From Candidatus Omnitrophota bacterium (GTDB lineage: Bacteria; Omnitrophota; Omnitrophia; Omnitrophales; Aquincolibacteriaceae): a stretch of 64,000 nucleotides of DNA. The notes beneath the pieces are model-generated. The model was given only the letters and a program-made list of their open reading frames with translations. It did not search any database and was not told the DNA's origin. Shown here one piece after another: positions 1 to 40,222 of the stretch. The translations under genes and the position numbers were made by a program. Where the stretch lies: positions 128,001 to 192,000 of the forward strand of contig JAZDJU010000037.1 of assembly GCA_043803685.1 (NCBI GenBank), given 5' to 3'. The first letter of the stretch is position 1, and each line of letters begins with the position of its first letter.

Positions 1-405
1 CCCAAGCACAACGCAAACCTTATCGTTTTTAGGATTCAACTCGAGAGCCTTCTGGAAATACGCCTGAGCCTTGGACGAATCCCCCCGCCCCAAATAGAGT
101 TCCCCAAGTACAAAAAAAGCAGCATCATTTCGGGGGGACAATTCGACTGCTTTCAAAAAAGCTTCTTCGGCCTGTTGGAATTTATTCGCCTCCTTATAAA
201 ATATCCCGAGATCGACGTAGCCTTTCCCGTTAGCGGGATCCTTGTCTATGCTCTTTTTAATTTCGCTCTCCATCAGATCATAGTCCGCTTGGGCATAGAG
301 GGGCACGAAAGCAACCGCAAAAAAAACAACCATCATTGCCAGAAACGCAACTCTCCCGCAGGACAATACCTCGCTAACCTTTAAACGTAATAGGATGTTC
401 TTCAT
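1..405 (-). CDS. Exported TPR-repeat protein (partial, runs off the window edge; not in the ORF track)
   Basis: Manual translation from ATG 405 gives MKNILLRLKVSEVLSCGRVAFLAMMVVFFAVAFVPLYAQADY (signal peptide-like), then TPR helices YVDLGIFYKEANKFQQAEEAFLKAVELSP and FFVLGELYLGRGDSSKAQAYFQKALELNP. No stop before position 1. Confidence 0.8.
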   Translation of the reverse strand, partial: MKNILLRLKVSEVLSCGRVAFLAMMVVFFAVAFVPLYAQADYDLMESEIKKSIDKDPANGKGYVDLGIFYKEANKFQQAEEAFLKAVELSPRNDAAFFVLGELYLGRGDSSKAQAYFQKALELNPKNDKVCVVLG

Positions 406-584
406 AGCCTCGGGTCTTCCTTAATTAGGTGAGCCCCCACTCCAGCACATCATGAACTCGCTCATCGCACGGACTTTTCTACGACTCCTTAATGGATTCC
501 ATGGTTTTTTCCTCTACGAGGAAACCCGTTAGCTCGTAAAAATGCACCCTAAGTCCTCAAGAGAGGCCTTCGGGCTCAGAACGA

Positions 585-1631
585 TCATTGACGGAAAATT
601 TCGGCAAGGATATCTTCCGTATTCCGGGTAATGGCCCATCCGGGATAGTGACGGGAGAACTTGGACACATCGCTAACCCACCAAATATGATCTCCGACCC
701 TGTTTTTTTCAATATAGGTCGTCTTCATTTTCCGTCCCGAGATCTTCTCACACAGCTGGATGGATTCCATCATGGAACAGTGGCTAAAACGGCTTCCGCC
801 CATATTGTAAACCTCGCCACATCGTGGGTTCTGGTAGAAATGATAAAAGCCGTTCACGAGATCATGGCTATGGATGTTGTCCCTGACCTGTTTGCCTTTG
901 TAACCGAAGATCTGGTACTCCCGGCCCAGCACCGCGCATTTCATGAGATACGCAAGGTATCCGTGCAATTCCGCCGCGGCATGGCGAGGACCGGTCAGGC
1001 ACCCGCACCGGAAACAACCGGTTTTGATCCCGAAATAGCGTCCGTATTCCTGGACCATAATATCCGCGGCAACCTTCGAAGCGCCGAAGACCGAATGCGT
1101 GCATTGATCGAGAGACAGGCTTTCATCGATCCCGTTCTTGAAGTAAGGGTGCCCGGGATCGAGCTCCCACCGTGTTTCCAGTTCTCGGAGAGGAAGACGG
1201 TTGGGATGATCTCCGTAGACTTTGTTGGTCGAGACAAAAATAAAAACGGCCTGGGGGCAGTGCTCACGCGTCGCTTCCAGAAGATTCATCGTGCCCACGG
1301 CATTAATCGCAAAATCCGTCTGCGGCTCCCGGGCGGCCCAGTCGTGGCTCGGCTGCGCCGCGCTATGGATCACCAGATCAACGTCCCGGCCATACTCCGC
1401 AAAAAGGCGGGAAACGGCTCCGACATCACGAATATCGATCTCATAGTTCCTGAAATGAGCGCATTCGTCCTCAAGTTCCCTGAGGCTCCCTCGAGTAGAA
1501 CCTTCTTCTCCGAAAAAATATTTCCGCATGTCATTGTCGATCCCGATAACACGGAACCCTTTCGCGTGAAAGAACCGCACCGATTCGGAACCGATAAGAC
1601 CGGCCGCTCCTGTGATCAATACGCTTTTCAT
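585..1631 (-). CDS. NAD-dependent NDP-sugar epimerase/dehydratase, CDP-paratose 2-epimerase (RfbE)-like
   Basis: ITGAAGLIG Rossmann motif, [27 protein letters not shown]. Start reset to ATG 1631 with AAGGA upstream. Confidence 0.85.
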
Positions 1632-1755: not shown

Positions 1756-2592
1756 TCAGGGTCGCGTCCAAAAATATTTATTGGAGACCGCAAGATAAAA
1801 GCATCGCACAAGCTCGTAAGGGAGGAACAGAGCGTAGACCCGGATCTTCCCCAAGAGATCTTCGTTCTTTTGGATCATCCAATGACGGTTGCGAAAACAC
1901 AAATATTGCCGGAATTTCCCTCCTGTATCGGAGCTGTTGCCGGCATGACAACACGTCATGTCCGGACAGAATTGGGCTTGCCATCCCGCCCGACTCGCCC
2001 TCCAGGCAAGGTCCACATCCTCAACAAGAAAGAAAAAACGTTCGTCAAAATAGCCTGTTTTTTCCCGGATCGCGTTGAGCATGGCCCTTCGATAAAAAGC
2101 AGCCGCGGAACAAGGACCGATGATCTTTTTTCCCGCAAGCCCGGGTCCATCCTTGGGTTTTCCTTGATTCAGATCATGGAACCTGCGACAGGCCGACAAA
2201 TGGATCCCTTGGGAATAGACCGTTTTGCCATCCGCGCTCAGAACATTCGGCTGGATCATCCCGACATCCTCGGAAAATCCTTTCCGTATTCGCTCGAACT
2301 CCGCAAGAAAACCGTCTCCAAGCACCACGTCATTGTCCAGGGCCAGAACCCAATCCCCTGAAGAACCTTCAATCCCCTGATTCCTGGCCTTGCTAGCGCC
2401 GAAATTCTTCGGGTTTTCGATCAAGTTCACGCCGGGAAAGTGCGTCTTGATGATCTCGCGCGTTTGATCCCGGGAATCGTTGTCGACCACCACGATCTCG
2501 ATGTCCCGAGCGTCTTGGCGCATTATAGAATCCAGGCATGCCCGGATAGAAGCTTGGCTGTTGAAGGTGATCACTACGATGGAGAGTCGCAT
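1756..2592 (-). CDS. Glycosyltransferase family 2 (WbbL/rhamnosyltransferase-like)
   Basis: [23 protein letters not shown] (DxD), [14 protein letters not shown]. Paralog of 35760..36677. Confidence 0.85.
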
Positions 2593-3947
2593 TGGCCGGC
2601 GAAAACTCTATGAAGGTTCACTTTGATGTTTTCCAGATCCTCGGCGCTGAGGTCCTGGGTCCTCACAATACATTTTCTGTTGCCGTCATAGTCCTCCCAG
2701 TTGTCGGAAACCAACCATCCCTTTTCCACGGCATCGTTAAAATAGACCGTTCCGGGAAATGGCACGGCAAATGAAAACTGAACCGAGTCAGGCTCCACCG
2801 ATCGCGCAAAATCAATCGTACTCTGGATCGTCTGTCTTGTTTCTCCTGGAAGACCAACGCAGAACGTCAAATGAACTTTAATCCCCAGGCGTTTGGAGAT
2901 CCCGATCATGGAACGGGCTTTCTCTAGATCCAGATTCTTCCCGCACGACCGTCGGACCTCTTCATCCGCTGATTCGATGCCATACTTGACGGCGTAGACA
3001 CCCGCGCGGGACATAAGCTCCAACAGCGCTTCATCCATCCTATCCGCGCGGGTCATCGCTCCCCAAGGAACATTCAATTTTCGTCTGAGGATCTCCTCGC
3101 AAATATTGACAACGTGCTCGCGGTCCCCATTGAAAGTTTCGTCATCAAAATAGACCGATTTAAAATTAAAATGCCGGATCAGGTGCTCCATTTCATCAAC
3201 GACGTCCAAAAAATTCCGTTTCCTGTACCCGCTCCCTTTATAGAGCGTCTGAGGAAGAAGGCAAAAGGAACATCGAAACAAACAGCCGCGACTGGCCAGC
3301 ATCTGAACGCTCGGGCCTGGCAGTCCTGCGAAACCATCGTTGTACTTATAGATGAGAGGCGCCGTTCTCTTGGGCCATGGCAAAACATCCAGATCATTAA
3401 TGCACCCCCGGCGATCGCTCACAAAGATCTGCTCCCCTGCGCGATAAGCCAATCCGGCTACATCGTCCAGTCCATGGCCTCGCTCAAGAGCCTCCACCAA
3501 CTCGACCGCCGAACGTTCATACTCTCCGATGATCACATAATCGATGGTAGGGTGTTCCGTTAAGATCTTTGCCGCAAACTCACCGGCATGCGCCCCGCAC
3601 AACCCGATATGGACATTCTTCATCGCTTGCCGAAGTGCCGCAATGATCCTTATATCATTTTTGAATGACGGCGCAGAGGTCTCGATCAGAACAAGCCCCG
3701 GATCGAACTCCCGGATCCTTTCAAGACAAAGAGGCTCGCTGATCTGCTCAGCGATCGCATCGATCAGTTTTACGGATTTCCCTTCTTTTTCTAATAAGGC
3801 GGCGGTATAAGCGAGAAAAAACGGAAAGGGGATATAGAGAAGACGCCCGTCTACCGCAGGCTTCGAAGTGAACGGCCAACGGGATCCAGCCCTGACCCCC
3901 AAACGTCCATCCTTAAACCATGGAAGATTTACGAGGGCCGTCTTCAT
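2574..3947 (-). CDS. Cobalamin-binding radical SAM enzyme (BchE/HpnJ-like architecture)
   Basis: Start reset to MKTALVNLPW (3947). RAGSRWP, IIGEYE, SRGCLFRCSFC (CxxxCxxC), YFDDETF, YGIESA, GLPGET, VPFPGT. Confidence 0.85.
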   Translation of the reverse strand: MKTALVNLPWFKDGRLGVRAGSRWPFTSKPAVDGRLLYIPFPFFLAYTAALLEKEGKSVKLIDAIAEQISEPLCLERIREFDPGLVLIETSAPSFKNDIRIIAALRQAMKNVHIGLCGAHAGEFAAKILTEHPTIDYVIIGEYERSAVELVEALERGHGLDDVAGLAYRAGEQIFVSDRRGCINDLDVLPWPKRTAPLIYKYNDGFAGLPGPSVQMLASRGCLFRCSFCLLPQTLYKGSGYRKRNFLDVVDEMEHLIRHFNFKSVYFDDETFNGDREHVVNICEEILRRKLNVPWGAMTRADRMDEALLELMSRAGVYAVKYGIESADEEVRRSCGKNLDLEKARSMIGISKRLGIKVHLTFCVGLPGETRQTIQSTIDFARSVEPDSVQFSFAVPFPGTVYFNDAVEKGWLVSDNWEDYDGNRKCIVRTQDLSAEDLENIKVNLHRVFAGQCDSPS

Positions 3948-3948
3948 C

Positions 3949-4611
3949 TTACTTGTTGAGATCGAGATGATTCTGAATTCGCTCGAAGAACTCCTTGATC
4001 TGATGAATACCCTGACTGATGTCCTTGGAATCACAGCTGATCTGTTCCGACGCTTGATAGATACTCTCGAACTGGTCCGGCGGAACCAGCTTAAGTTTGA
4101 TCTCTTCCAACTGATCAAGCAGAACAAGTCTTTGCCTGATCTCTCCCAGCTGATCGAGCGGAACAAGCTTTTGTTTGATCTCTTCCAACCGATCAAGCGG
4201 AACAAGCTTTTGTTTGATCTCTTCCAACCGATCAAGCGCTACGAGCTTTTGCTTGATCTCTTCCAACCGATCGAGCGCCACGAGCCTTTGCTTGATCTCT
4301 TCCAACCGATCGAGCGCTACGAGCTTTTGCTTGATCTCTGCTAACCGATCGAGCTGAACAAGTTTTTGATTGACCTCCTCCATTTTTTGACCCTGATCAA
4401 ACATCATTTGCGCGAGATTGCCAAAAACCCTGATAACAACCGCGCAAAGAGAGCTTCCCACCATGATGAGGAAGCCGCTCACGAGCGACTCATGCCCGTT
4501 CGCCTTAAAAAAGATCCAATACGCGCCGACGAGAACGCCCAGTGCGGCAATCGCCCATGCATAAAGGCCCAAAACAAATACCGTAGGAATTTTTTTAGTT
4601 TTCATCGACAT
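3949..4611 (-). CDS. Two-TM membrane protein with a cytoplasmic or periplasmic helical domain of 13-aa tandem repeats
   Basis: Two hydrophobic segments at the N-terminus, then 8 copies of KLVxLDRLEEIKQ. Translationally coupled to both neighbours. Confidence 0.75.
   Translation of the reverse strand: MSMKTKKIPTVFVLGLYAWAIAALGVLVGAYWIFFKANGHESLVSGFLIMVGSSLCAVVIRVFGNLAQMMFDQGQKMEEVNQKLVQLDRLAEIKQKLVALDRLEEIKQRLVALDRLEEIKQKLVALDRLEEIKQKLVPLDRLEEIKQKLVPLDQLGEIRQRLVLLDQLEEIKLKLVPPDQFESIYQASEQISCDSKDISQGIHQIKEFFERIQNHLDLNK
4054..4365. repeat. 39-bp coding tandem repeat, about 8 copies
   Basis: Unit such as gatctcttccaaccgatcaagcggaacaagcttttgttt repeats at a 39-nt period. Confidence 0.9.
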
Positions 4612-7600
4612 TGTCCTTTTTGTTGATGTTCCGTTCGACTATAGCTTGAGAACTCTTGATCCGATCGATCAGATCGGACGATCGCATCAGATCCAACGAT
4701 CGAAACTTTCCATCATCTAACCATGCTTTGATCGTTTGAGTAAGTTTCAAAAAAAACGGGTTAAGATGCGGATGCTCCCTTTCCAGCAACCCGATCCAGT
4801 CAGGACGTTCCCTGACAAGACCCATCAGCTTTTCCAGCAAAACATCGTCGTGCGTGTTATAAACGGAGATCAGGAGATGTTTATAGAGCAATCGTTGAAA
4901 CTCCGTCTCCCCAAACCTGTCGATGATCCAGCGGTTAAGCGCAAGGATCAAAGCAAATAAATTCAGGGAAAAGCTTTCCTTCGGAGAAAGCAGGCTGGAT
5001 AGGGCGTTTCTCTTCCCGGCATAACGATAAAAGAACGTCAGATCGATCAAGGCCAGCCAGGGTGACAACCTGGGCTCCTTCTTCGCGCCACTCACATCCG
5101 TATCGCGAAACATAAAATGTTCCAGATCCATTAAAGAGTGATGTATCGCCAAAAAGAAGTCCAGATAAAGGAGTGCTTCCCGATGGTTCTCCAGATCCTC
5201 ATCAAGATAGCGGTTGGCTAAGCCCACATTGTCCTTCATTTTCAGGGAAAAATTTTCCGGATCTAAAAAGAACTTTTGTTCATCATAATATTCGCGACGC
5301 CAGTTCCAGAAGGTTTTAAAAAGCGAGAAAATATCATCTCGCTTTAAGTGATGCGCGATCGCCCCGGCTTCATATCCCAGCACTTGTCCCGTTCCCATAA
5401 GACGCCGGCTCAGATTCACGTCCTCATAATTGTTCTTGAGCGTCTCATCATAAAAGCCTACATCCAGAACTACCTGACGACGCAATACGGTGTTGGCGCC
5501 AAACAAGAACTCAGGGACTTTGTTTTCTGGTTCCCAATACTGTTTCATGTGAACTGCGCGCCACTCGTCGAATACGGAAGAAGTCTTGCTCTCCAGCAAC
5601 TTGCCTCCCATACCGCAAATGTTCGGGTCGTCAAACCTGCTCATCAAACGCGAAAGCCAGTCATGATCCGCAACGCAATCCGCATCCAGAGACGCGACAA
5701 ACTCTGTGTTCATATTCTTAAGAGCCGTATTTCTGGCAGCAGCGAGACCCTTGTTAGTCTCATGGCGGAACAATCGCACGCCATAAGAGGACGCAATGTC
5801 ACAAGTTCTGTCCGTCGACCCGTCATCCACCACGGCCACCTCTACCACAGGATACGTTTGCCTGAAAACAGCCTCCAGACAGGCCGAGAGTGTTTTTTCT
5901 GCATTGTAGCAGGGGATATACAACCCCACTCGTTTTAGCGGCAGAGCCATGCCCGAGAAAACCCATTTGCCGTCTCGATTGATCGCCACGCCGTTGCAAC
6001 CCTCGAGGGATCCGCCGGACTGAAGACGGAAAAGCACATTCAATAATATTTGCTCGCCTTCTCCGGTGATAATAAAGTCCGCGAATTTCTGCAACCCATG
6101 CGGCAATAGAAGGTCACGATCATCCTGGGTTAAATTGTAACAACAGGTTCCTCCCAGAAGAATCTTCACCTCAGGATATCTGCTCTTTACTCTCTTGATG
6201 ATCTCCAGAGTAAATAATGCGGAGGTTTTTTGGACTGAAAAACAGATCACATCGGGAGTTACCGCAAGGATCCGATCCACACATTGCTCATAGACCTGTT
6301 CCGTGATGAACGGTAATTGATAAAAGCTGTCCTCTGAACACCACCGGTCTCTGTTATGGCTATCCCAATAAGTCTTATGATCGCCAGCCACCTCATGATA
6401 GACCATGATGTTTAAGTCAAGAACGCTCGCCTCACACCCATTGGCGTTGAGATAGGCCAGCCCCAAGGAAGGCCTTTCAACGCCGAAAGGACAAGGGCAT
6501 TGGACGAGAGCTATTTTCATTATGCCGGGCCTCGCATTCTCGAGCCCTGCGTCAACAATGGAACTGCTGAAAAGTTTTCTCTTTTGCGAATAGTTGCTCT
6601 CAAGGTCGAAGTCGTCCCGATAAGAACACCACTGCAGACAAGGTTTGCTGCATTGGCGTATCAACTTTCGAAGATCCCTCGCGTTCGCCGAATACCAGAG
6701 ATCTTTCAGGCTGTCTTTTTTCACATCCCCGAACGTCGCCTCATGGCTATTCTGGTTCACGCAAAAATAAAGCTTCCCCTCCTGAACCACTTGAATGCGA
6801 TTGTATCCGGCATAACAAGGCCTCCCGGTGATCTTTGTCCGCCCCTGAAAATACTTTTTGATCGATTCCAGATTTTCGATCGCATTGGCAACAAGATCAA
6901 AATTGCACTCGTTCATTTTCTTAAATTGAATGATAGCATCGATGGAATCCTCCAGGAGCTTCAGCCTTGCTGGCGGTATACAGACCCCCGAATTCATTTC
7001 CGCCTTTTCCTGGTCCGTATTATCTCCCACCACGGGTTGAAAGATCACGCTGGATATCTTTAAGCTTCGGCATAATTCGATGACATCCATAAGTTCGCCA
7101 GCATTTTGATCCATGATCGTACAGACGCAACAGATCGAGGGCGAATACCTCCCTCTTTTCTCTTTCATTGCATTGATCAACTTCACATTGGCGATGATCT
7201 TTTCCAGATAATTCTGGCCCCGGATCTTCGAAAAAGATTCCTCCGTCGCCGCATCGATCGACACGCTCAAGTTGCTCAGATTCGCTTCGAACATTTTTTC
7301 AACGATCTTTTCGGACATGATCGTGCCGTTCGTTACCACCGTAATGGAGGAGAATCCGCAATCCGCCGCAAAAGAGACCATCTCGAATAACCGCGGTTCC
7401 AGAAAAGGCTCCCCCCCGATCAAGATCAGCGCAGGGACCTTCATTTCCGCGCCTTCTTTAATAAGTTTCTTGATCGTCGAAATATCCAGATCCACCGGGC
7501 GATTCTGGGCCTTGAAAGACTCCTCCCTTTCGTGCATGCTGCACATCGTGCACCTTAAATTACAACGGAAGGTGAAATTGATCTGAAGGGCATCTGCGGG

Positions 7601-7681: not shown

Positions 7682-7733
7682 TTTTCCTTTTTGAGCCTGT
7701 TGTATCGCCGCTGGATTCCCGGATGACGATCCT
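6566..7733. repeat. Copy B of a ~1.17-kb segmental duplication (copy A at 10488..11655)
   Basis: Long near-identical DNA stretches at a constant offset of 3922 nt, including about 50 nt upstream of the ATG. Confidence 0.9.
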
Positions 7734-7887
7734 CAGCTGCAGTAGACGACGAATTATTCGTCCTCCCTATCGTAAAACCTTTGCACACAAGACCCGGGGC
7801 CTTGCGCTCTTGAGCCCTAGGCTCATCCCCACCCGTGCGGTGAGAAATTCCCGCCAAGTACAATTCTTTGGCTGATCCGCAACACAC

Positions 7888-26300: not shown

Positions 26301-26405
26301 AGGACCTTCCCCAGTTTAGTGGACGGTTTGTTCAGATAATATCGTCTGTCTTTCGTACTCAAAAGGACTCGGATTCCCGATTGTTGAATGAGCCCCTTCA
26401 GAAAA

Positions 26406-31777: not shown

Positions 31778-31984
31778 TCACGGGCTCGTTTTACGCGCGC
31801 AAAGAACGAAAAAATCTGCCAGATTCGAAAACCGCATCAACGCTCAAGCGTGGAGCAGAACGCCGTCTACTAGCACCCGCGGGAATACCGCCAGCGGTTT
31901 CCCTGCCCCCGCTCCAGACCGGTGAATTATATTCCTGAATGAGTCTATTGAACAGCCTTCCCAAAAGGCGCCACCGCTCTTCAT
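31778..31984 (-). pseudogene. Possible internally deleted gene relic (methyltransferase-like ends)
   Basis: ATG overlaps the GT4 stop. Reads MKSGGAFWE...LLHA*ALMRFSNLADFFVLCARKTSP* with one in-frame TGA at 31844-31846. Confidence 0.25.
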
Positions 31985-33078
31985 ATCTTCCTTAGAATAT
32001 CCGCCAGTTTTTTTCCAAGAACCCCGAGCGAATAGGCCCTTTCGACTTCCAGTCGAGCTCGCTTTCCGACCTCGCCGCGCAATGTCGGATCTTCGGCAAG
32101 ACGCTCCATTGCGGCAATGAACTCTTTTGGGCCTCTGGCCAAAAATCCCGTTTCACGGTCCCGGAGGATATTTTTCGCTTCACCCCTTTCGCTAGCGACC
32201 GTAGGTTGTGCCATACTCATGTACTCGAAGAGCTTGGTCGGACTTTTCGCCTTATTGAATTTCGTGTCCTGAATCAACGGCAACAGCCCGACATCCATCC
32301 CGGAAAGATGGCTGGGGATCCTGTCAGGATGGATCCAGTCGTGGGCCGTTACCTTATTCCTGTGTTTGTATCCAGAAAGGATCCGCTTCATCTCATCGAA
32401 ATATCTTCCCTCTCCGGCCAGATCGAGCAAGACATGATCGTGCCGGTCGGCCACTTCGGAAAAACAATCCAGCAAAAAACGGATATTGGCACCCATCTCT
32501 TCATGATAGGCCGTTCCGATCCAGGAAAAAACAACGTTTTTCCTGGAAGCGACCCCTTGGGGACAAAAAAAGTCCGTGTCCACGCCGGTCGGAAGATAGT
32601 GGACCGAGGGATTAAATTCCGCGAGGTAATGTTCTAGAAATTTGCTCGCGGCAATGCACGTCGTAGCTCGCCGGGCGACCTGTCGCGTGACATATTCCAT
32701 CTTAGAGCTCGGATAAAAACCCAGGTGGTATGCCGGATTCTCCCGGATATTCCAATCATCACAGTCCAACACCACCCGGTTCCGCTTGGACCAGGAAACA
32801 AGAAGAGGCGCCAGAGCGTGGTAATTCAATCGTTGAAGGATAAAAACCGTGTCAGAAGATTCTTGTGCGAGTCGTTGCAGGGCCTTCATGTTCAGCCCGA
32901 GCTTTTTGAGCCCCGACATTTCCAGTTCTTTTTCGCCGCACTTCGCGCCCAGATCATCGGCGAATGAAAAAACCCGGGCATCGAAACCCTGCCTTTTCAA
33001 TTCCCGGCAAAAATTATAACAACGGACCCTTGCGCCGGACAATCCGTAACCTTCCCGTGTAATAAAAAGGATCTTCAT
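31981..33078 (-). CDS. Glycosyltransferase family 4
   Basis: MKILFIT, LDCDDW, PTGVDT, KSPTKLFEYMS, TGFLA. Confidence 0.87.
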   Translation of the reverse strand: MKILFITREGYGLSGARVRCYNFCRELKRQGFDARVFSFADDLGAKCGEKELEMSGLKKLGLNMKALQRLAQESSDTVFILQRLNYHALAPLLVSWSKRNRVVLDCDDWNIRENPAYHLGFYPSSKMEYVTRQVARRATTCIAASKFLEHYLAEFNPSVHYLPTGVDTDFFCPQGVASRKNVVFSWIGTAYHEEMGANIRFLLDCFSEVADRHDHVLLDLAGEGRYFDEMKRILSGYKHRNKVTAHDWIHPDRIPSHLSGMDVGLLPLIQDTKFNKAKSPTKLFEYMSMAQPTVASERGEAKNILRDRETGFLARGPKEFIAAMERLAEDPTLRGEVGKRARLEVERAYSLGVLGKKLADILRKI

Positions 33079-33995
33079 CGAGAAATTTTCTTTTCTGCGC
33101 CTTCAACAAATCGATTCCTGAGAATACAGTCATAAATGTTTTTCGCCATAAGCTCATAACCGGCATCGTTGGGATGCCAGGAGTCCTTGGGCCAAAGATA
33201 CGCTTGCGGGTCCTGCAACTTCTGAAAAGCCTCGTAATGGTCTACGAGGGGTACGTCAAATTGACGGGCCAAATCTTGCTGGCTGCGCCGAAGCCCTATC
33301 GTCGTATGCATCGGATAGGTGCAAAGGATCACCGGAATGTGGCTCGCTTTGCATAACTTGATCATTTCTTCGATGTCATGCTCCGCAAGATCGTCAAAAA
33401 TACTACCCGCCTCCTCTTTCTTTCTCTCGAGCTCTTCCCTAGCCTCGCCTGAGGGCGGGACGAAGAAATCCCAATGCTCTTTGGGAAAACCATACGCAAA
33501 AGCAAGGCTCTTGAACAATTTCCAGACCCTGAACTGATCAAGAAAGATCAAGACTTGTAAGGTCGCCCGAGACACCGTCGTGTTCTTGCTAAAAAGCAGG
33601 ATATTGCTCCGGTCCATGTTCCACCGGTTATTGACGCCCACAAGAAGAACAATCAATTGCGGCCGGTATTTCATGATATGGCGCGGAAGCTTGGCCAGGA
33701 TCTCAGAGGTGTTCTGGCCGATGGTCTGGTCGAAAAGACATTGGACGTTCGCGCTCGGGTATTGTTTGTTCAACATCTCTTCCAGCTGACGGGGATAGTT
33801 CTTCGAGGCACGGTCACTCGCCCCGACACCCCACGTCGTCGATTCTCCCACGCAATAGATCCTGTATCCTTCGCCGGCGCGCGGGGACGTCTTATGAACG
33901 AGATCATACCCGAACCCCAGAAGCCTCAAGAAAAGCTCCAGTCCGGCAAACGCCAAAAAGATCCCTAATAGAATGCAAACGATCTTATCTTTCAT
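33075..33995 (-). CDS. Membrane-anchored SGNH/GDSL hydrolase or acyltransferase
   Basis: N-terminal TM, YCVGESTTWG, VGVNN, DSWHPNDAGY. Confidence 0.8.
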   Translation of the reverse strand: MKDKIVCILLGIFLAFAGLELFLRLLGFGYDLVHKTSPRAGEGYRIYCVGESTTWGVGASDRASKNYPRQLEEMLNKQYPSANVQCLFDQTIGQNTSEILAKLPRHIMKYRPQLIVLLVGVNNRWNMDRSNILLFSKNTTVSRATLQVLIFLDQFRVWKLFKSLAFAYGFPKEHWDFFVPPSGEAREELERKKEEAGSIFDDLAEHDIEEMIKLCKASHIPVILCTYPMHTTIGLRRSQQDLARQFDVPLVDHYEAFQKLQDPQAYLWPKDSWHPNDAGYELMAKNIYDCILRNRFVEGAEKKISR

Positions 33996-34074: not shown

Positions 34075-35763
34075 TCAAGCCTTGAAAAATTGATAGAGTC
34101 CAAACTCTTTAAGTCCCTGGGTCATATCCAGTAAATTCTGATGATTGTCACAGTGGTTGCAATGCTCATCGTAAAGCTTCACGCCGTTCAAACACCTGAC
34201 CTCGGTATTCTTCGACAGGAATTTTGCCTCGATGCGTTTTTGACGGTAATAATCGGACTGCCAGAGTTCCTTCAGGCGGGACTGCTTCAGATCTCCCAGG
34301 GTCCTCAAATGACAGCACATACTCAGATCGCCAAGCGCGGGGATCAAACAAAAGGTCCATCCGATCGTGCACCCCTCTTTTAAAAAAACATCCTTGGACC
34401 ATGCCCCGCTCTCTTCATCGTAATGCTCGAACTGGAACTTGAGACTGCGGATAAAATCAATGCCCGCCTTCTTGAGGACCTCCTCAGCCTTCGGCAGATC
34501 CCTCTTCATTATGGCAAGCTGCTCCTTGGTCAGCCGTAAGTGCCCGTTGTTCTCATCGATCCGGATCATATAGAAACGAGCGGCATCGGTCCCGATATGA
34601 ACATCCATTTCCGCCATGGAGATGAGTTCGTGAAAATTCATGGAGTGAATGACATGCGTCATGATCACGCGAGGGAACGATTTGCCGGATCTTTTCTTCA
34701 ACTCCATCAGGGTCCTCATGTTCTCAACAGTTCTCTCAAAAAGATCGTTCGATCCGGACTCCAGGCAAACCTTGGAATAGGTCTCTGCCGTCCCTGCCGG
34801 AAGAGAGCAATAGATCTCGCGCACTTCAAGCGCCAGGATCCTTTCCGCGATCTCGCGTGTTAAAAGGGCCCCGTTCGTAAAAAAAACAGGCTTGATCCCT
34901 TGGGCCCGCACATAGGCAACCATCTCAAGAAAATCCGGATGCATCAGGGGCTCGCCGTCCCCCTGAAGAATGATCCGGTCAGTCCCGAGCTCCGCAGCGT
35001 CATCCACGATCTCCTTGAATTTTTGAAGATCGATCTTCCGGTCTAAAAACTCCTCCGGATGATGAATGAGCGGATTATGAACGAAACAATGCGCGCACTT
35101 GATATTGCACCGGTGATAAGGGTCCAGAACAATGACCTGGGGCCCCATGATCGCTTCTTCAAAAATAACTCCGAGCATGCGCGCCAGATCATCTTTCCGG
35201 AACGGGTAAAGACGGGCGTTCATTTCGGCTGTCTCAAAAATCTCGGGCAGTTCCTGATCATACCACCCGATCCTGATAGCGGGATGGATCTTGTTGAGTT
35301 CTTCAATGGTCGCGGATAGTTCCTTCGCCAAGTTTTCCACTGGGAAAAACTTGAAGGGCTCCGTGAACACCCGGCCGTCCTCGACACCGCCCCTCAGAGA
35401 CTCAAGGCATAGTCTGTACATCTGCCTGATCCGGAAAAAATTATACCGCGACAAGCCGATCTCGATTATTTTTTGGCTCTGAGCGCGTTCGCGAATATGC
35501 GCGACCACGGCGTCAAAATTTTTCTTTCCGCTGACGCGCTCGTGCAATGCGGCTCGATCACCCAGAAGAACTTTTTCGGGGTTCAGGACCTTCGGAATAT
35601 CGATCATTCCCGCAACACCCTTCACGTCCTGTGCTGCCCGGAAAAAATCCTTCGCCTTCGCAACCGCACGGGCAGGATCAGCCCCGAACAACTTCGCGAC
35701 TTTCCGCAGAAAATCCATACGGCATCTTACGGATAAGAAGTGAACGAGCGTTCGGATCTTCAT
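34075..35763 (-). CDS. Radical SAM/SPASM enzyme with a ~200-aa N-terminal extension
   Basis: Start at the ATGA overlap 35763. CNIKCAHC, QGDGEPLMHP, FTNG, CTIGW...MCCH...HCNHCDNH. Confidence 0.85.
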   Translation of the reverse strand: MKIRTLVHFLSVRCRMDFLRKVAKLFGADPARAVAKAKDFFRAAQDVKGVAGMIDIPKVLNPEKVLLGDRAALHERVSGKKNFDAVVAHIRERAQSQKIIEIGLSRYNFFRIRQMYRLCLESLRGGVEDGRVFTEPFKFFPVENLAKELSATIEELNKIHPAIRIGWYDQELPEIFETAEMNARLYPFRKDDLARMLGVIFEEAIMGPQVIVLDPYHRCNIKCAHCFVHNPLIHHPEEFLDRKIDLQKFKEIVDDAAELGTDRIILQGDGEPLMHPDFLEMVAYVRAQGIKPVFFTNGALLTREIAERILALEVREIYCSLPAGTAETYSKVCLESGSNDLFERTVENMRTLMELKKRSGKSFPRVIMTHVIHSMNFHELISMAEMDVHIGTDAARFYMIRIDENNGHLRLTKEQLAIMKRDLPKAEEVLKKAGIDFIRSLKFQFEHYDEESGAWSKDVFLKEGCTIGWTFCLIPALGDLSMCCHLRTLGDLKQSRLKELWQSDYYRQKRIEAKFLSKNTEVRCLNGVKLYDEHCNHCDNHQNLLDMTQGLKEFGLYQFFKA

Positions 35764-36677
35764 TTTTCGCTCTTGGACAACCTTGCTAAGCGTGAAAAGA
35801 AGATCCCTATCACTCTCGGTCTGAAAAATAGAACGTGACACCACGCGAAGATATCATAAAAAAGCATCGGTATCAGATGAAGGCAAAATCCCAAGATGGA
35901 TTCATTTTTCACAATGGTCCGATAGCGATTTTGGATCAGATCCATGTAGAATTCATCGCTGAGATAACGGCGCGCCAGGGGCTTCCCCTGCCCGGATTCG
36001 CGGCGCACGGATCCTCCCCGAACATGACATGCCACCGCCGTAGGCACATAATAGGCCTTCCACCCGCGATGATGCGCTCTCCACGAAAGATCCAGATCTT
36101 CATAGAACATGCGAAAAGCGGGATCGAAAAAACTCGCGCCTTCTTTGATCTCCTCGAGCATCTTCCGGCGATAGAAAGCCACGGCCCCGCCGACTCCGAA
36201 AATGAACCCTTCCTTTTCAAACTGGCCACGATCCAAACAGCCATACCCTCTTTCACGAGCCGTTCGCGAAACGCTCAAAAATAATCCCGTCGTGTCCAGT
36301 GTCCGATGGTCCGGACGCAAGATCTTTCCGCTCACCATTCCGACGGTTTCACTGACCGCAAACCCATTCAGGGCTTTGCTGATAAAATCATCTGCGAGCG
36401 TTGCGTCATCGTTCAAACATAAGACGAGCTCGCCCTGGCTCAGGGCGATCCCGCGGTTCAAGGATTCCCCGTAGTAAAGATTTTTTTCAGGGATAACTAT
36501 TTTTACCGAAGGATAAGCCTCTCTCGCCTTTGGCTCCACGGTCGCGTCCATCGCATTATTAACGAGAATCACTTCCGCGGGAGGACAGGTTTGCCGGCGC
36601 AGGGATTCCAGACATGCCACAAAAAAATCATTACGTCCGCGCGTCGGAACAATAACGCTAACCGAAGGATTATGCAT
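35760..36677 (-). CDS. Glycosyltransferase family 2 (WbbL-like)
   Basis: SVIVPT, CLNDDA, AVAFYRR, FYEDLDLSWR. Start taken at MHNPSV. Confidence 0.85.
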   Translation of the reverse strand: MHNPSVSVIVPTRGRNDFFVACLESLRRQTCPPAEVILVNNAMDATVEPKAREAYPSVKIVIPEKNLYYGESLNRGIALSQGELVLCLNDDATLADDFISKALNGFAVSETVGMVSGKILRPDHRTLDTTGLFLSVSRTARERGYGCLDRGQFEKEGFIFGVGGAVAFYRRKMLEEIKEGASFFDPAFRMFYEDLDLSWRAHHRGWKAYYVPTAVACHVRGGSVRRESGQGKPLARRYLSDEFYMDLIQNRYRTIVKNESILGFCLHLIPMLFYDIFAWCHVLFFRPRVIGIFFSRLARLSKSEK

Positions 36678-36772
36678 GCTCGATGTCCGCCACACGCGAT
36701 CGCTCCCTGAGATCTTGAAAAGTCTTCATATCCCTATCAAAACGATCTGCGCATCATGCGGATGTTGATCTT

Positions 36773-38089
36773 TCATTCCTGAAGCAGCTTTTGAGCGACT
36801 TGCCTGCCGTCCAGGATCGCGTCTTCCATCGACATGTATTTCCAGGCGCCATACCGCCCGCAGGGGAAAATATCCTTGGCGCGCAAGAAATCAAAGATCA
36901 CGCTTTTCGCCCGGGCATGATCATGATCATAAATAGGATAACCATACTCGACATCGTTGATATCTTCCGCGAGGACCCTGTTGCCGGGAGACAGGAATCC
37001 TGTCTTAGCAAGGTCCCGGGTAATACGAAGCAGGATCTTCTGCTTATCGATGGGCTTGCGTTTGGAATACGAAACCTCAGCGTAAAGGGAACCTTTTCCC
37101 GAGGGTGCGACGCGGGAAGAAAAGTGATGCGGAAAACCAACGCGAAAAAAGCTTTTCTCTTTCTGCGGGAAATAGATCCAGTGCCATCCCGCGGAGGCTT
37201 CGCTAAAACGGGTCCCAAGGTTCAGGTTGAAAATGGAATTCCACCTTAACCGGTCAAAAGCATTCCGCACGGCTTGAGGAAGGTCCGGGATCATGGAGGA
37301 CAGTTCGGGAAGCGGCACGGTCGAGATCAGGCGATCAAATTTTTCTTTTCGCCCTGCGAAGGTTTCGATCTCTTTCCTTCCAAGATGGATCCTGAAAACG
37401 CCGTTTCCGGTGCGAAGGGACTGCAGGGATCCCGCGAACGCCTGCGGCAATTGTTCGATCCCGCCCGCCCTCGGATACCAGAAGTAAGCGTTATACCCCA
37501 ACTGATCCGTGCTTTTCCTGCGGGCCCCATGCCGCACTTGCTCCAGGGACGGAACAGGCACCATTCCTTCGAGCCATTCACAGGTCATCTCTTTGGGCGG
37601 AACCGTCCAGAATTTGGCGTTGTAAGGGTCCATAAAATGCCGGGCGATACCGCTCCCGAAGGTCTGGCGGGTCCATTGAAAAAAATTCTCGGGTCTTTGC
37701 CGGAAGGGCTCTTTCCCTTGTTTCTGGGCGCGCACAAAACCCTCCAGGCATTCTTTAACGATCTTCGGTGGAAGACCGAAAAGATTCGCCTGAAAAGGAT
37801 ACCGTGTATAACGGCCGCACACGGAGACCCACGCGCTCCTCTCGTGTTTGACAAGACGGCCTTTCAATAATTTCCGGACGAGATCGAAAACATAGGGGCT
37901 CTTGAAATGCAGCAAATGCCCGCTGTAATCAAAGACAAAACCGTTGACGTTCTTGGAGCGGCATAATCCGCCGATCTCATCTTCTTTTTCAAGGATGAGA
38001 CACGGAACGCCTTCTTTTTCCAGATGCCATGCGGCACTGAGCCCCGCGATCCCGGCGCCGAGAATAAGGATCTTCTTGGAGGATCTCAA
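36773..38089 (-). CDS. FAD-dependent oxidoreductase, UDP-galactopyranose mutase/protoporphyrinogen oxidase-like
   Basis: ILGAGIAGLS, GGLCRS, FDYSGHLLH, YPFQ, FWYP..GG, YGYP, GRYGAWKY. Start taken at a TTG overlapping the upstream stop. Confidence 0.75.
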   Translation of the reverse strand: MRSSKKILILGAGIAGLSAAWHLEKEGVPCLILEKEDEIGGLCRSKNVNGFVFDYSGHLLHFKSPYVFDLVRKLLKGRLVKHERSAWVSVCGRYTRYPFQANLFGLPPKIVKECLEGFVRAQKQGKEPFRQRPENFFQWTRQTFGSGIARHFMDPYNAKFWTVPPKEMTCEWLEGMVPVPSLEQVRHGARRKSTDQLGYNAYFWYPRAGGIEQLPQAFAGSLQSLRTGNGVFRIHLGRKEIETFAGRKEKFDRLISTVPLPELSSMIPDLPQAVRNAFDRLRWNSIFNLNLGTRFSEASAGWHWIYFPQKEKSFFRVGFPHHFSSRVAPSGKGSLYAEVSYSKRKPIDKQKILLRITRDLAKTGFLSPGNRVLAEDINDVEYGYPIYDHDHARAKSVIFDFLRAKDIFPCGRYGAWKYMSMEDAILDGRQVAQKLLQE

Positions 38090-39069
38090 ATTTTCACGCG
38101 TTCCATATCTTTGATCAAAAACAGACTCCCCAGTCCCGCAAGAACAAGCGCCAGGACGGCAAAAGGATGGGAGCCTCTTCCCAAAACCATACCCGTCAGA
38201 ACAAAAAACAAGGTCCAGCCCATCATCACGACCAGGGTCTTCCGTTTCGAATATCCTTTTTTGAGAAATCTCAACGCCATATGATCTTCGCTTTTGTTGA
38301 ACGCCGATCGACCTTTTCGAACACGCACCCATATAAGGAACAGCGTGTCCAGGATGGGGAACCCTAGCACAAGAACGGGTGTGAGAAGCGCCACCGCCCT
38401 GTCCGGCGTGGCATAGCGGCCTGTTAAACTGATCGCGGCCAGGACAAGCCCGAGAAAATGGCTCCCACTGTTGCCCATGTAAACTTGGGCCGGCGGCACG
38501 TTAAAGATCCAAAAGCCCAGCACGCTTCCTGCCAACACGCAGGAAAATCCCAAGGTCAAACTGTCCCCGCTCATACATGAAAGAACACAGAACCCGGAAA
38601 GGATCACAAGGGCGACACCGCCCGCCAAGCCGTCCATGACATCCAAAAGATTCATAGCGTTCGTGATCCCGATGATCCACAGAACAGAGATCACAAGATT
38701 CAGCGGTTCGCCCACATTGAAAAAATTCGTTCTAACGCCAAATGCTATCAGGATCGCCGCCGCGAACAGTTGCACCCAGAATTTCTGAGCCACGGACAAC
38801 TCCTTATGGTCATCAAAAATGCCGGCAACGAGCATGACGGCCGAAGCGATCAAAAGACCCATGGCTTCCCGGGAAAGACTGGAAAAAAAAGGCCCCGTTA
38901 GCAAGAGCCCCATAAGGAGCGCCAGTCCCATACTGATTCCACCGATCGAAGGAACCTCTTTGGAGGTCAAAAAAGACCAGCGCCTGGCGGCCGGCCGGAT
39001 CAACAGCAGAAACAACACGGAAAATAAAAACCCGATCCCCGCAGCCACTGCCGGACTACTCATGAGCAT
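38086..39069 (-). CDS. wecA: Polyprenyl-phosphate HexNAc-1-phosphate transferase (WecA/TagO/MraY family)
   Basis: PSIGG, GIFDD, TNAMNLLDVMDGLA, FNVPPAQVYMGNSGS, PILDT. About 10 TM helices. Confidence 0.8.
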   Translation of the reverse strand: MLMSSPAVAAGIGFLFSVLFLLLIRPAARRWSFLTSKEVPSIGGISMGLALLMGLLLTGPFFSSLSREAMGLLIASAVMLVAGIFDDHKELSVAQKFWVQLFAAAILIAFGVRTNFFNVGEPLNLVISVLWIIGITNAMNLLDVMDGLAGGVALVILSGFCVLSCMSGDSLTLGFSCVLAGSVLGFWIFNVPPAQVYMGNSGSHFLGLVLAAISLTGRYATPDRAVALLTPVLVLGFPILDTLFLIWVRVRKGRSAFNKSEDHMALRFLKKGYSKRKTLVVMMGWTLFFVLTGMVLGRGSHPFAVLALVLAGLGSLFLIKDMERVKI

Positions 39070-40222
39070 GCACTCTCCCCCCATTCCCGGTCAGTTCCTG
39101 ATAGAGCCCGGCGTGAGCTTTTATCATGGTTTGCGTGTCAAAAGTGTCGTCTATACGCCGCTTCGCGCACTGAACCATTCGCTCTCTGCGAGCAGCATCT
39201 TCTAAAAAAATGCTCGCATTTTTTAGCATAGAAGCCATGTTATGGCAAGGAACAAGAAATCCCGTTTCCCCCTCTACGATCACTTCGGAGATCCCTCCCG
39301 TATGGGTCGCCACCACCGGCACTTGACTCGCCATCGCCTCCAGGACCGCGATCGGCAATCCCTCCCAGAGGGAGGTCAGTACAAAAACATCCATCGCGGA
39401 CAAAACCCTGGGAATATCCCTTCGCCAACCCGTCAAAATGAACCGGGACCTCAAATCGAGTTCATCGATCGACCGTTCCATCTTCTCCCGGAGCACGCCA
39501 TCACCCACCCATAAGAACCAGGCGTGCGGCAAGGCCTCTTTTGCGTAGGAAGCCAATTTTATAAAATCTTCCGGAGACTTTTGGGGTTTAAAACAGGCGA
39601 TCGTTCCGATCACGACCGCATCCTCAGGGATCCCCAACTCCTTTCGAATATAAAGATCCCTTTTCTCAAACCGGGCCCGGTCAATGCCATAACGTATCAA
39701 AGCATAATGCTTCTCTGAACCGATCCCGCAACCCAGGCCCTTTTGCCTGTCGTGCTCCGAAACGACAATGATCTTGTCGGTAAATTTCGCGGTGAATTTC
39801 TCGAGTCCTCGATAAAGATTTCTGATAAACGGTTTTTGAAAATCATGGAAGGCCCAGCCGTGGACCGTGTGAAGAATGATCCTGGCGCGGACCAGGGCCC
39901 CGGCGAATCTTCCAAGAATGCCGGCTTTGGAGCTATGCGTGTGAACGATATCGATCTTGTTCCTTCGGATGAACCGGATCATTTCGATCAGAGAGAGAAT
40001 GTCTTTCAGCGGATCGATCGGCCGTTTCAAATACCGGGACCTGTGAACGACAAGACCGTCCATAGACAAAGCTTCTTCGACAAGCGGTCCTTCTTGACCG
40101 GTGAAGAGAAAAAGAGCGTAACGATCCTTGTCGATCCCCCGGATCAGGCTTAGCAACTGGGTCTGCGCACCGCCGAGTTCCAACTGGGTGATCACATAAA
40201 GGATCCGGACCTTTTGCATCAA
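39056..40222 (-). CDS. Glycosyltransferase family 4
   Basis: LGGAQ, HTHSSKAG, HTVHG, SLWEGLPIAVLEAMA. Confidence 0.9.
   Translation of the reverse strand: MMQKVRILYVITQLELGGAQTQLLSLIRGIDKDRYALFLFTGQEGPLVEEALSMDGLVVHRSRYLKRPIDPLKDILSLIEMIRFIRRNKIDIVHTHSSKAGILGRFAGALVRARIILHTVHGWAFHDFQKPFIRNLYRGLEKFTAKFTDKIIVVSEHDRQKGLGCGIGSEKHYALIRYGIDRARFEKRDLYIRKELGIPEDAVVIGTIACFKPQKSPEDFIKLASYAKEALPHAWFLWVGDGVLREKMERSIDELDLRSRFILTGWRRDIPRVLSAMDVFVLTSLWEGLPIAVLEAMASQVPVVATHTGGISEVIVEGETGFLVPCHNMASMLKNASIFLEDAARRERMVQCAKRRIDDTFDTQTMIKAHAGLYQELTGNGGRVHAHE

Follow-up and report, generated by a model that had tools for sequence, protein, structure and literature searches.

A Wzm/Wzt glycan locus of Omnitrophota with a variable set of radical SAM genes

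Introduction

The O-antigens of Escherichia coli O9a and of Klebsiella are made by pathways that depend on an ATP-binding cassette (ABC) transporter, in which Wzt has a C-terminal carbohydrate-binding domain and WbdD contains a coiled-coil ruler. The galactofuranose (Galf) galactans exported by Wzm/Wzt include the mycobacterial cell-wall galactan and Klebsiella D-galactan I. To our knowledge, characterised ABC-dependent glycan loci contain few or no radical S-adenosylmethionine (SAM) genes. Here, we analysed a 64,000-nt stretch of DNA, referred to as the window, from a Candidatus Omnitrophota bacterium (GenBank assembly GCA_043803685.1, contig JAZDJU010000037.1, positions 128,001 to 192,000), and in particular the gene cluster that occupies positions 1-40222 of the window. 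We interpret the locus as the form that an ABC-transporter-dependent pathway for envelope glycans takes in Omnitrophota, and it contains 12 radical SAM genes. Its product is probably a surface glycan of that pathway, edited by radical SAM chemistry.

Other described systems resemble parts of the locus. Three-component periplasmic glycosylation, exemplified by the Arn pathway and by FlmF2/NaxD/FlmK of Francisella, uses a polyprenyl-phosphate-sugar synthase, a flippase and a GT-C glycosyltransferase. In antibiotic pathways, the radical SAM enzymes that modify sugars work one at a time, have small molecules as substrates and belong to secondary-metabolite clusters; those of BlsE and AprD4 are soluble natural-product intermediates of small size that bear sugars. 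The chemistry of lipids has radical SAM precedents in Tes/GDGT-MAS, ladderane-type and hopanoid enzymes. Proteusins such as polytheonamide, which belong to the RiPPs (ribosomally synthesised and post-translationally modified peptides), receive, within a single polymer, numerous epimerisations by radical SAM enzymes and C-methylations that depend on B12. Hopanoid tailoring, as described in the available part of PMC12324291, proceeds through a lipid-linked glucosamine: HpnI attaches N-acetylglucosamine, the acetyl group is removed by HpnK, and HpnJ forms the cyclitol ether.

Omnitrophota are a widespread uncultured phylum, reported to be host-dependent (10.64898/2026.06.07.730766; 10.64898/2026.05.20.726742; this and the following sources were available in part). 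In the available text, radical SAM appears only within domain lists of giant proteins (10.64898/2026.06.07.730766; 10.1101/2023.11.21.568195), solely as tailoring enzymes of gene clusters (PMC9902471) or solely as lipid enzymes (PMC11868695), and in PMC13635244 the term is confined to the reference list. For Omnitrophota, 10.64898/2026.05.20.726742 describes another, distinct polysaccharide cassette, in which Wzc occurs together with an O-antigen ligase and AlgI/J; its available text makes no mention of radical SAM. Surveys such as PMC9902471 and PMC11868695 probably count genes of the present kind as markers of RiPPs, ladderanes or tetraether lipids, which calls for care in the mining of genomes. 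Our literature search, with subscription journals and supplementary files outside its reach, returned no account of a radical-SAM-rich Wzm/Wzt glycan locus or of a family of fusions between glycosyltransferase family 2 (GT2) and radical SAM domains, and radical SAM genes in polysaccharide loci were met only as isolated mentions. An earlier inspection of the window without database searches, called here the sequence-only reading, had likewise known of no described pathway with this composition.

Gene Content and Export Pathway

In the region 1-40222, every long open reading frame (ORF) is located on the minus strand, and the ORF listing gives 29 genes, in accordance with the co-oriented run described in the sequence-only reading. 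The same reading had called the run largely overlap-coupled, which holds for about half of the 28 junctions, some of them depending on the choice of start codon; by the ORF coordinates, the remaining genes are spaced by 18-308 nt. An ORF at 7555-7887 (110 aa) was dropped and treated as non-coding because it has no family match, its composition is of low complexity and it overlaps gene 4595-7681 at its start. The cluster runs past the left edge of the window, which cuts a TPR gene (1-405, minus strand, identified by Pfam), and therefore its far end is outside our view. A Pfam scan covered 30 ORFs of the region and ORFs further to the right (50 window ORFs overall). All the gene types that had been claimed for the pathway (WecA-like, GT2, GT4, GT-C, Wzm and Wzt) were found by Pfam. 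Apart from the radical SAM genes, the cluster encodes Wzm, a Wzt of 918 aa, a WecA-like protein and, as glycosyltransferases, three stand-alone GT2, two GT4 and a GT-C/PMT_2 protein that has TPR repeats. It also codes for a flavoenzyme, an SDR epimerase/dehydratase, a YdjC deacetylase and three SGNH hydrolases with a membrane anchor, as well as for a membrane protein of 220 aa and the truncated TPR protein. All the cluster genes named below are on the minus strand.

The first gene of the run codes for the glycosyltransferase GT4b (39056-40222; Glycos_transf_1, 118.7 bits, and Glyco_transf_4). It is followed by the gene of the WecA-like polyprenyl-phosphate N-acetylhexosamine (HexNAc)-1-phosphate transferase (38086-39084), the predicted initiating enzyme, which matched PF00953 with 120 bits (cut-off 27) and the NCBIfam model ECA_wecA with 96.5 bits, below its cut-off of 326. 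A flavoenzyme resembling UDP-galactopyranose mutase is encoded at 36773-38083 (the ORF was listed as 36773-38332, with a likely start near 38083). It matched Pfam Amino_oxidase and, over residues 3-417 of 436, the UDP-galactopyranose mutase of PDB entry 4dsg (175 bits, E 2e-50), while the score with NCBIfam TIGR00031 was 53.6 bits, below the cut-off of 303.75. The likeness to 4dsg suggests that the glycan may have a furanose component. The Wzm ABC-2 permease (30933-31700) was recognised by PF01061 (ABC2_membrane, 58.5 bits) and scored 55.7 bits, below the cut-off, with NCBIfam galactan_ABC_perm, and the Wzt ATPase (11596-14352) by PF00005 (ABC_tran, 73.4 bits). Further glycosyltransferases are GT4a (31981-33078; Glyco_trans_1_4, 64 bits), GT2c (35760-36695; Glycos_transf_2 and Glyco_tranf_2_3) and GT2a (1756-2592; Pfam GT2, 100.6 bits). 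The parts of an ABC-transporter-dependent pathway for a polyprenol-linked glycan, as postulated in the sequence-only reading, are thus present: the PF00953 protein at 120 bits, Wzm, Wzt and the glycosyltransferases.

The locus resembles those of ABC-dependent O-polysaccharides in its WecA-type start, cytoplasmic GT2 and GT4 enzymes, Wzm, a Wzt with a C-terminal extension and a core membrane protein with a coiled-coil-like repeat of variable length. It differs from them in that the Wzt extension consists of three beta-sandwich repeats, in that no WbdD-like kinase/methyltransferase terminator or WaaL was found among the scanned window ORFs, and in its 12 radical SAM genes. With the loci of Galf galactans it shares the WecA-like and mutase-like proteins, the GT2 enzymes and Wzm/Wzt; the NCBIfam galactan export models were the best for the permease (56 bits) and the third for the ATPase (143 bits), both below cut-off. 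However, the mutase-like protein is of the long, eukaryote-like type, with 4dsg as its best match, there is no GlfT equivalog, and the radical SAM set has no counterpart in the galactan loci.

The Radical SAM Proteins

Each of the 12 proteins contains one CxxxCxxC motif and matches PF04055 (Radical_SAM, E 1e-18 to 1e-29). The motif is absent from all 16 ORFs in 40300-64000. When a background of 1-4% radical SAM genes was assumed, the probability of finding at least 12 among 29 genes was at most 5e-10 even at 4%. From this and from the flanking ORFs, we conclude that the clustering is not due to chance.

Four stand-alone proteins are predicted to bind B12 on the basis of N-terminal PF02310 matches of 31-79 bits: B12r1 (2574-4235), B12r2 (20569-22002), B12r3 (23247-24740; 31.4 bits with PF02310, cut-off 32.1) and B12r4 (24888-26300; PF02310 and PF04055). 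B12r3 and B12r4 are 38% identical. A fifth B12-binding stretch comprises residues 462-548 of the 1028-aa protein encoded at 4595-7681. All eight non-B12 proteins have 5-8 Cys residues past the core (counted in the 1028-aa fusion for its radical SAM/SPASM part only). The Pfam SPASM domain was found in 5 of the 8 at E<=1e-3, and one more, rS445, matched it only at E=0.05. In 6 of the 8, CxxxCxxC is located at or before residue 46, where the residues of the GT2-radical SAM fusion are those of its radical SAM domain. Two proteins are fused to GT2 in opposite order, as GT2-radical SAM (29004-30914) and as radical SAM-SPASM, B12 domain and GT2 (4595-7681). The motif count and Pfam agree with the numbers given before, i.e. 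12 CxxxCxxC proteins, four of them cobalamin-binding, eight with Cys-rich tails and two fused to GT2.

Among the stand-alone radical SAM/SPASM genes, rSP392 (18578-19756; Pfam and motif count) and rSP395 (17394-18581; PF04055 100.6 bits, SPASM 42.7 bits) overlap by 4 nt. Further along the cluster are rSP407 (10485-11603, Pfam and motif count; the ORF was listed to 11708, with a likely start at 11603) and two genes for proteins with Cys-rich tails, rS348 (9215-10261; Pfam, motif and Cys count) and rS445 (7888-9225; Pfam), which overlap by 11 nt. The product of rSP589 (34075-35844; PF04055 65 bits, SPASM 32 bits) has CNIKCAHC at residue 246, behind an N-terminal extension of ~230 aa for which there was no Pfam match, and no PqqD domain or RiPP recognition element (RRE) at E<=1.

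The sequence-only reading had left it to be seen whether the enzymes fall into characterised families. As to CHARACTERISED family membership, all 12 radical SAM proteins score below the curated cut-off with every NCBIfam model. The SPASM types scored 60-146 bits, below cut-off, with NirJ, AhbD, tungsten-cofactor-maturase, MoaA and peptide-maturase models. The best matches of B12r3 and B12r4 were rSAM_ocin_1 and ApyD, also below cut-off. B12r1 (259.9 bits) and B12r2 (186.6 bits) are HpnJ-like, with HpnJ (cut-off 577.6) as their best match. In searches of the PDB, the cytosylglucuronate decarboxylase BlsE was the top match of rSP392 (65 bits) and rS348 (52 bits) and the top radical SAM match of the 636-aa fusion (48 bits); for rSP395 it came second (51 bits) to SkfB (60 bits). 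All three B12 types compared had AprD4 as their top match (B12r1 101 bits, B12r2 82 bits, B12r4 44 bits), and B12r2 further matched TokK (55 bits) and OxsB (49 bits). By sequence, BlsE, AprD4, BtrN, DesII, OxsB and TokK are the nearest solved relatives. Unlike these antibiotic sugar enzymes, to which the likeness is remote (25-101 bits), the arrays described here are located in a polysaccharide export locus. Even so remote a likeness to BlsE and AprD4 makes a sugar substrate plausible for the radical SAM enzymes.

Conservation in Related Genomes

To compare the locus with others, 53 related loci were collected from species-representative genomes. They were anchored on the GT2-radical SAM fusion with the use of two peptide patterns, and ±10 kb was taken at each. 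ORFs were called in the loci and matched to the window proteins. Because the best locus is only 73% identical, the window's own genome is not among the 53. The loci are labelled as Omnitrophota (33, including Ca. Undivivens), uncultured Planctomycetia/Planctomycetales from third-party assemblies (15), unclassified (4) and Paceibacterota (1). Most of the window cluster proteins are 54-78% identical to those of locus L001; the identity is lower for the WecA-like protein (41%), the second epimerase ORF (28%) and a B12 ORF (31%).

A common gene order recurs. It begins with GT4, WecA-like, mutase-like, Wzm, Wzt and the GT2-radical SAM fusion, continues with a variable block and ends with rSP392, rSP395, a GT2, the 220-aa membrane protein, B12r1 and GT2a, so that GT2a follows B12r1 as it does in the window. 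In the loci of at least 21 kb, both Wzm and Wzt were present beside the fusion in all 24 cases, the mutase-like gene in 20, the WecA-like gene in 18, a GT4b homologue in 17 and the rSP392/rSP395 pair in 18. These loci contain 3-10 radical SAM genes (median 6.5) in ~22 kb; since the loci were cut at ±10 kb, these counts are minima. Among all 53 loci, many of which are on short contigs, Wzm was found in 39 and Wzt in 43. A conserved linkage to wzm/wzt and glycosyltransferase genes had been named as the check on the idea of a glycan-tailoring system, and it was observed, with Wzm and Wzt flanking the fusion in 24/24 of the loci of at least 21 kb and a WecA-like gene present in 18/24. We conclude that the locus is not a one-off. 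It is a feature at the level of the phylum Omnitrophota, and its radical SAM cassette is variable.

The GT2-Radical SAM Fusion

The signature protein of the locus is the 636-aa fusion encoded at 29004-30914, in which Pfam detects GT2 (95 bits) and Radical_SAM (76 bits). It has more than 120 full-length homologues with 47-83% identity. The named ones all come from Candidatus Omnitrophota/Omnitrophica, except one labelled 'Patescibacteria group' and one labelled 'bacterium'. In an alignment of 18 sequences, the DxD of GT2, CxxxCxxC, GGE and five C-terminal Cys were invariant. The AlphaFold 2 (AF2) model has a predicted local distance difference test score (pLDDT) of 88.5. The fold of its GT2 half matched TarP, WrtF and AvpGT. 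For the radical SAM half, BlsE (7vob) was the best among the listed radical SAM structures, with a target-normalised template modelling (TM) score of 0.71 and a root-mean-square deviation of 4.0, followed by SkfB (0.58) and SuiB (0.53). Two proteins of 963 aa, P0109 and P0113, are relatives of the fusion.

The Variable Cassette

The interval between the fusion and rSP392 was examined in the 24 loci that have both flanks. It ranges from 24 nt to 9.7 kb and holds 0-9 ORFs, of which 0-8 are radical SAM genes; in the window it is 9.2 kb long. The 53 loci together with the window yielded 258 motif ORFs of 250 aa or more, and clustering of these (at least 38% identity, at least 70% coverage) gave 49 clusters, 26 of them singletons. 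The core clusters, with the window's own members included, are those of the fusion (44), rSP407/rS445 (36), rSP392 (22), rSP395 (19), rS348 (16) and B12r1 (11). B12r2, rSP589 and the 1028-aa protein are singletons. Further radical SAM fusions occur as singletons of 614-991 aa in the clusters of other genomes, and at L012:11998-14430 an 810-aa protein of the same cluster type has two radical SAM/SPASM modules in tandem.

Pfam divides the 1028-aa protein (4595-7681) into radical SAM-SPASM (residues 1-371), a B12-binding fragment (388-577) and GT2 (584-1012). This triple fusion was considered as a conserved architecture and rejected, since its component parts are separate genes in other loci, where the N-terminal part is 372-383 aa long and the GT2 part 423-518 aa (whole ORFs). 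The 1028-aa GT2 fusion is a lineage-specific chimera. Its first 371 aa are 81% identical to rSP407, and the nucleotide identity is 86% over 1155 nt (10485-11708 against 6569-7734). The match reaches ~50 nt upstream of the ATG of the 1028-aa gene. Judged from these identities, the likeness is a recent internal duplication. The ORF looks like an in-frame chimera of an rSP407 copy, an N-terminal B12 domain of the B12r3/B12r4 type and a GT2 that is separate elsewhere.

The G+C content is 0.47-0.525 over the glycan locus (1-40000) and mostly 0.51-0.555 in the flanking housekeeping genes (40001-58000), with one 2-kb bin of 0.494. This mild difference could reflect exchange of the cassette.

Wzt and the 220-aa Membrane Protein

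The nucleotide-binding domain of Wzt (residues 14-241) scored 212 bits with PDB 8dku; the scores with 8dku, 7k2t and 6amx were 210-212 bits, and those with TarH/TagH 147-171 bits. The C-terminal 690 aa consist of three internal repeats of ~225 aa each, for which there was no matching Pfam family. The same architecture recurs in 37 loci and in almost all of the 70 database proteins found, of which those with a name are all from Omnitrophota. In the AF2 model (pLDDT 84.7), the repeats form three all-beta, beta-sandwich domains. The search with the whole model was noisy (query-normalised TM 0.07-0.24), and therefore only matches of probability 1.0 were used, together with an Atlas search for each repeat. 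The probability-1.0 matches of the C-terminus were to the beta-sandwich parts of carbohydrate-active enzymes, and repeat 1 came out close (TM 0.71-0.78) to GH123_N, apionate-lactonase-N and rhamnosidase accessory domains. Repeat 1 is also near a family of ~695-aa ABC ATPases, mostly from Candidatus Hydrogenedentota (TM 0.90). As those ATPases carry the same beta-sandwich domain, a Wzt extension of this kind is not confined to Omnitrophota. The modelled folds point to the repeats as putative glycan-binding modules.

The 220-aa protein (3949-4611) has no Pfam family. Its hydrophobic N-terminus is followed by coiled-coil-like tandem repeats of 13 aa; at 4080-4382 within the gene there is a 39-nt tandem repeat with 7.8 copies and an 84% match, the 13-residue unit of which is heptad-like, with the consensus LVALDRLEEIKQK. 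Homologues were found at the same position in seven loci. Both ends are kept in them, and the length varies from 112 to 301 aa. By analogy, the variable repeat recalls WbdD and might act as a spacer or ruler.

A Sub-module with HpnJ-like and HpnK-like Proteins

The block 19713-28979 comprises the genes of the GT-C/TPR protein, B12r4, B12r3, GT2b, B12r2 and the YdjC-family protein. The membrane glycosyltransferase of the GT-C (PMT_2) type (26406-28979) matched PF13231 with 35.9 bits (cut-off 26.1) and has a C-terminal TPR. GT2b (22174-22938) is a small GT2 of the polyprenyl-phosphate sugar synthase type. Its NCBIfam scores, all below cut-off, were 76 bits with ArnC (cut-off 529), 69 with PgfS, 41 with AglJ and 38 with PpgS. 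The gene of the carbohydrate deacetylase (19713-20597; PF04794, 184 bits) overlaps B12r2 by 29 nt, and the best NCBIfam match of its product was HpnK with 159.1 bits, below the cut-off of 232.6. An 85-aa ORF at 22955-23212 (minus strand), in the 308-nt gap between B12r3 and GT2b, has no Pfam family and no homologue among the small ORFs of the 53 loci.

As in the HpnI/HpnK/HpnJ set, a GT2 (22174-22938), a YdjC deacetylase (19713-20597) and a B12 radical SAM protein (20569-22002) are encoded near each other. In contrast to hopanoid tailoring, no squalene-hopene cyclase or HpnH is encoded in the window, and the GT2 is ArnC-like, not HpnI-like. Membership of the hopanoid pathway was rejected, as the HpnJ and HpnK scores are below cut-off, squalene-hopene cyclase is absent from the window and the sole HpnH match was 37 bits. 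By analogy, the sub-module might follow the logic of HpnJ, in which an aminosugar that is linked to a lipid and has been deacetylated is rearranged by radical chemistry. The lipid of the sub-module is likely polyprenyl phosphate. The ArnC-like GT2, the deacetylase and the GT-C protein in one 9-kb block also recall three-component glycosylation. Unlike in those systems, no GtrA-like flippase was detected by Pfam, and three B12 radical SAM genes are located inside the block.

By these analogies, the sub-module would work in four steps. Polyprenyl-phosphate-HexNAc would be made by GT2b and deacetylated by the YdjC protein. It might then be rearranged or methylated by the HpnJ-like B12r2 with B12r3/B12r4. 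Finally, the GT-C/TPR protein would transfer the modified polyprenyl-phosphate-aminosugar on the periplasmic side.

Other Genes of the Window

Three genes for membrane-anchored SGNH hydrolases were found. The one at 33075-33995 codes for an SGNH/GDSL protein with a hydrophobic N-terminus (Lipase_GDSL_2, 63.9 bits). The other two proteins, identified by Pfam, have TPR repeats; that encoded at 15866-17401 has a 69% identical homologue in L001, and that at 14401-15831 is its paralogue with 34% identity. The SDR sugar-nucleotide epimerase/dehydratase (585-1811; PF01370, 139.6 bits) scored 117 bits with the NCBIfam model of dTDP-glucose 4,6-dehydratase and 95 bits with that of GalE, both below the cut-offs.

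Housekeeping and signalling genes are located to the right of 40222, e.g. those for CHASE2-GGDEF, MnmE, PurH and a class II ribonucleotide reductase. The latter (42253-45426, minus strand) is B12-dependent and 1057 aa long; two separate stretches of it match the barrel domain, and a TSCPD domain is present at the C-terminus. At 54741-57791 (plus strand), genes for myo-inositol-1-phosphate synthase and a CDP-alcohol phosphatidyltransferase are followed by that of a 443-aa protein with no Pfam match. They may form a module for an inositol phospholipid or an inositol-phosphate solute. Two paralogous periplasmic binding proteins (Peripla_BP_6) and, behind them, a 932-aa hybrid sensor kinase (sCache, HAMP, PAS, HisKA, receiver) are encoded at 58058-63541 (plus strand).

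Discussion

In the pathway that we consider probable, the WecA-like enzyme would start a chain linked to polyprenyl diphosphate, the mutase-like flavoenzyme would probably supply a furanose donor, the GT4 and GT2 enzymes would lengthen the chain at the cytoplasmic face, and Wzm/Wzt would export the glycan. The radical SAM enzymes are expected to be cytoplasmic, because they need SAM and a reductant and have no signal peptide. The 12 enzymes would edit the sugars of intermediates, which may be nucleoside diphosphate (NDP)-sugars, polyprenyl-phosphate-sugars or polyprenyl-diphosphate-glycans. The SPASM/twitch types are candidates for oxidation, decarboxylation, dehydration or epimerisation, and the B12 types for C-methylation or an HpnJ-like ring rearrangement. 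The GT2-radical SAM fusion may add a sugar and modify the same sugar within one protein. The three beta-sandwich repeats of Wzt could check the finished, modified glycan ahead of export, and the membrane-anchored SGNH hydrolases would act after export. The variable cassette, which separates the fusion from rSP392, would make the surface glycan differ from lineage to lineage.

The sequence-only reading had claimed a glycan heavily modified by radical chemistry. This claim is upheld as far as the pathway genes, their conserved linkage and the lack of a precursor peptide or RRE are concerned; the action of the enzymes on the glycan, their chemistry (methylation, ring contraction, epimerisation or cross-linking) and the type of product (O-antigen, S-layer glycan or glycolipid) are inferred.

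Several observations weigh against a radically edited glycan. The similarities to BlsE, AprD4, HpnJ and HpnK are remote (44-260 bits), with all NCBIfam scores below cut-off, and the peptide maturases SkfB, SuiB and PqqE and the lipid enzyme GDGT-MAS score similarly in the same searches. No GtrA-like flippase, no WaaL-type/Wzy_C ligase and no recognised chain terminator were found among the window ORFs scanned with Pfam, although a ligase may be encoded in another part of the genome. No classical Wzt carbohydrate-binding domain was among the top 50 fold matches of the Wzt model, and the whole-model TM-scores are low. Counterparts of the YdjC protein and B12r2 were seen in none of the 53 loci within ±10 kb; among the window proteins, the YdjC protein was never the best match of a locus ORF. 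The linkage counts are anchored on one protein and two peptide patterns, and they describe linkage, not prevalence in the phylum.

The enzymes might act on NDP-sugars only, so that unusual donors are made before transfer by deoxygenation, decarboxylation, branching or epimerisation, and no polymer or lipid-linked sugar is edited. The substrates of the nearest solved relatives, BlsE and AprD4, are consistent with this. Moreover, Pfam found one SDR and one mutase in the locus and no aminotransferase or nucleotidyltransferase; with so few sugar-nucleotide genes, unusual donor sugars would need other chemistry. The conserved GT2 fusion, however, fits better with modification coupled to transfer, as does the HpnJ/HpnK-like pair next to the ArnC-like GT2, which leans towards a sugar linked to a lipid. 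We regard a restriction to NDP-sugars as unlikely, and it is a sub-case of glycan editing rather than its opposite.

Slightly less credit is given to a lipid target, in which the polyprenyl carrier or the lipid of a glycolipid would be modified by C-C coupling, cyclisation or methylation to give an unusual exported glycolipid. Such chemistry is suggested by NCBIfam scores with Tes (62-64 bits), with the ladderane-associated B12 radical SAM model (80-128 bits) and with HpnJ and HpnR, and by PDB matches to GDGT-MAS (7tol, 25-43 bits). Ladderane-type clusters and Mss homologues are reported from Omnitrophota in the available parts of PMC9902471 and PMC11868695. On the other side, all the scores with lipid models are far under the curated cut-offs, and the Pfam scan of 1-40222 gave no gene for fatty acids, isoprenoids, a squalene-hopene cyclase or an acyltransferase. 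Conserved as partners are WecA, the mutase-like protein, glycosyltransferases and Wzm/Wzt, and one radical SAM domain is joined to a soluble GT2.

Modification of a RiPP or a protein, in which the SPASM types would cross-link or epimerise, the B12 types C-methylate, the glycosyltransferases glycosylate and the ABC transporter export, is improbable: many of the best NCBIfam matches are peptide maturases (StsB, WgkB, ScmE/F, rSAM_ocin_1 and ApyD), SkfB and SuiB are among the PDB and fold matches, the GT-C/PMT_2 protein could glycosylate a protein, and Omnitrophota radical SAM clusters are classed as RiPPs in the available part of PMC9902471, but the peptide-maturase scores are all below cut-off, 76 small same-strand ORFs (25-110 aa, outside large genes) from 54 sources gave no family present in more than two sources, none of the 30 cluster ORFs contains PqqD or an RRE at E<=1e-3, CxxxCxxC comes early in 6 of the 8 non-B12 proteins, the transporter is of the Wzm/Wzt type without a peptidase domain, and WecA-like and mutase-like genes are the conserved partners.

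The radical editing of an exported surface glycan may be extended to a wider and more speculative proposal. A simple lipid-linked glycan would be rewritten by the SPASM and B12 arrays, of which one member is fused to the glycosyltransferase that sets the sugar in place, and which might epimerise, oxidise, deoxygenate, C-methylate or ring-contract its sugars. The swappable cassette would be the chief source of surface-glycan diversity in the phylum, the triple-domain Wzt would proof-read, and the coiled-coil protein would set where or when editing stops. We hold this full scheme to be possible but doubtful. If it is true, it would be the carbohydrate counterpart of the peptide editing in proteusins. 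The likeness is one of analogy only: an array of SPASM and B12 radical SAM genes is located beside machinery for a linear polymer. In contrast to proteusins, the polymer would not be a ribosomal peptide but a glycan, and the small-ORF comparison yielded no precursor gene.

The export pathway of the locus is known, while the variable complement of radical SAM genes, the signature fusion enzyme and the architecture of Wzt are new. The diversity of polysaccharides is usually ascribed to nucleotide-sugar pathways and glycosyltransferases, and the radical SAM enzymes known to act on sugars are single ones of antibiotic and hopanoid pathways. If radical SAM enzymes edit the glycan as proposed, an export locus with 3-12 of them would be a third route to glycan diversity, and dozens of radical SAM families would gain a plausible class of substrates. 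For the Omnitrophota, the locus provides a handle on the cell envelope.

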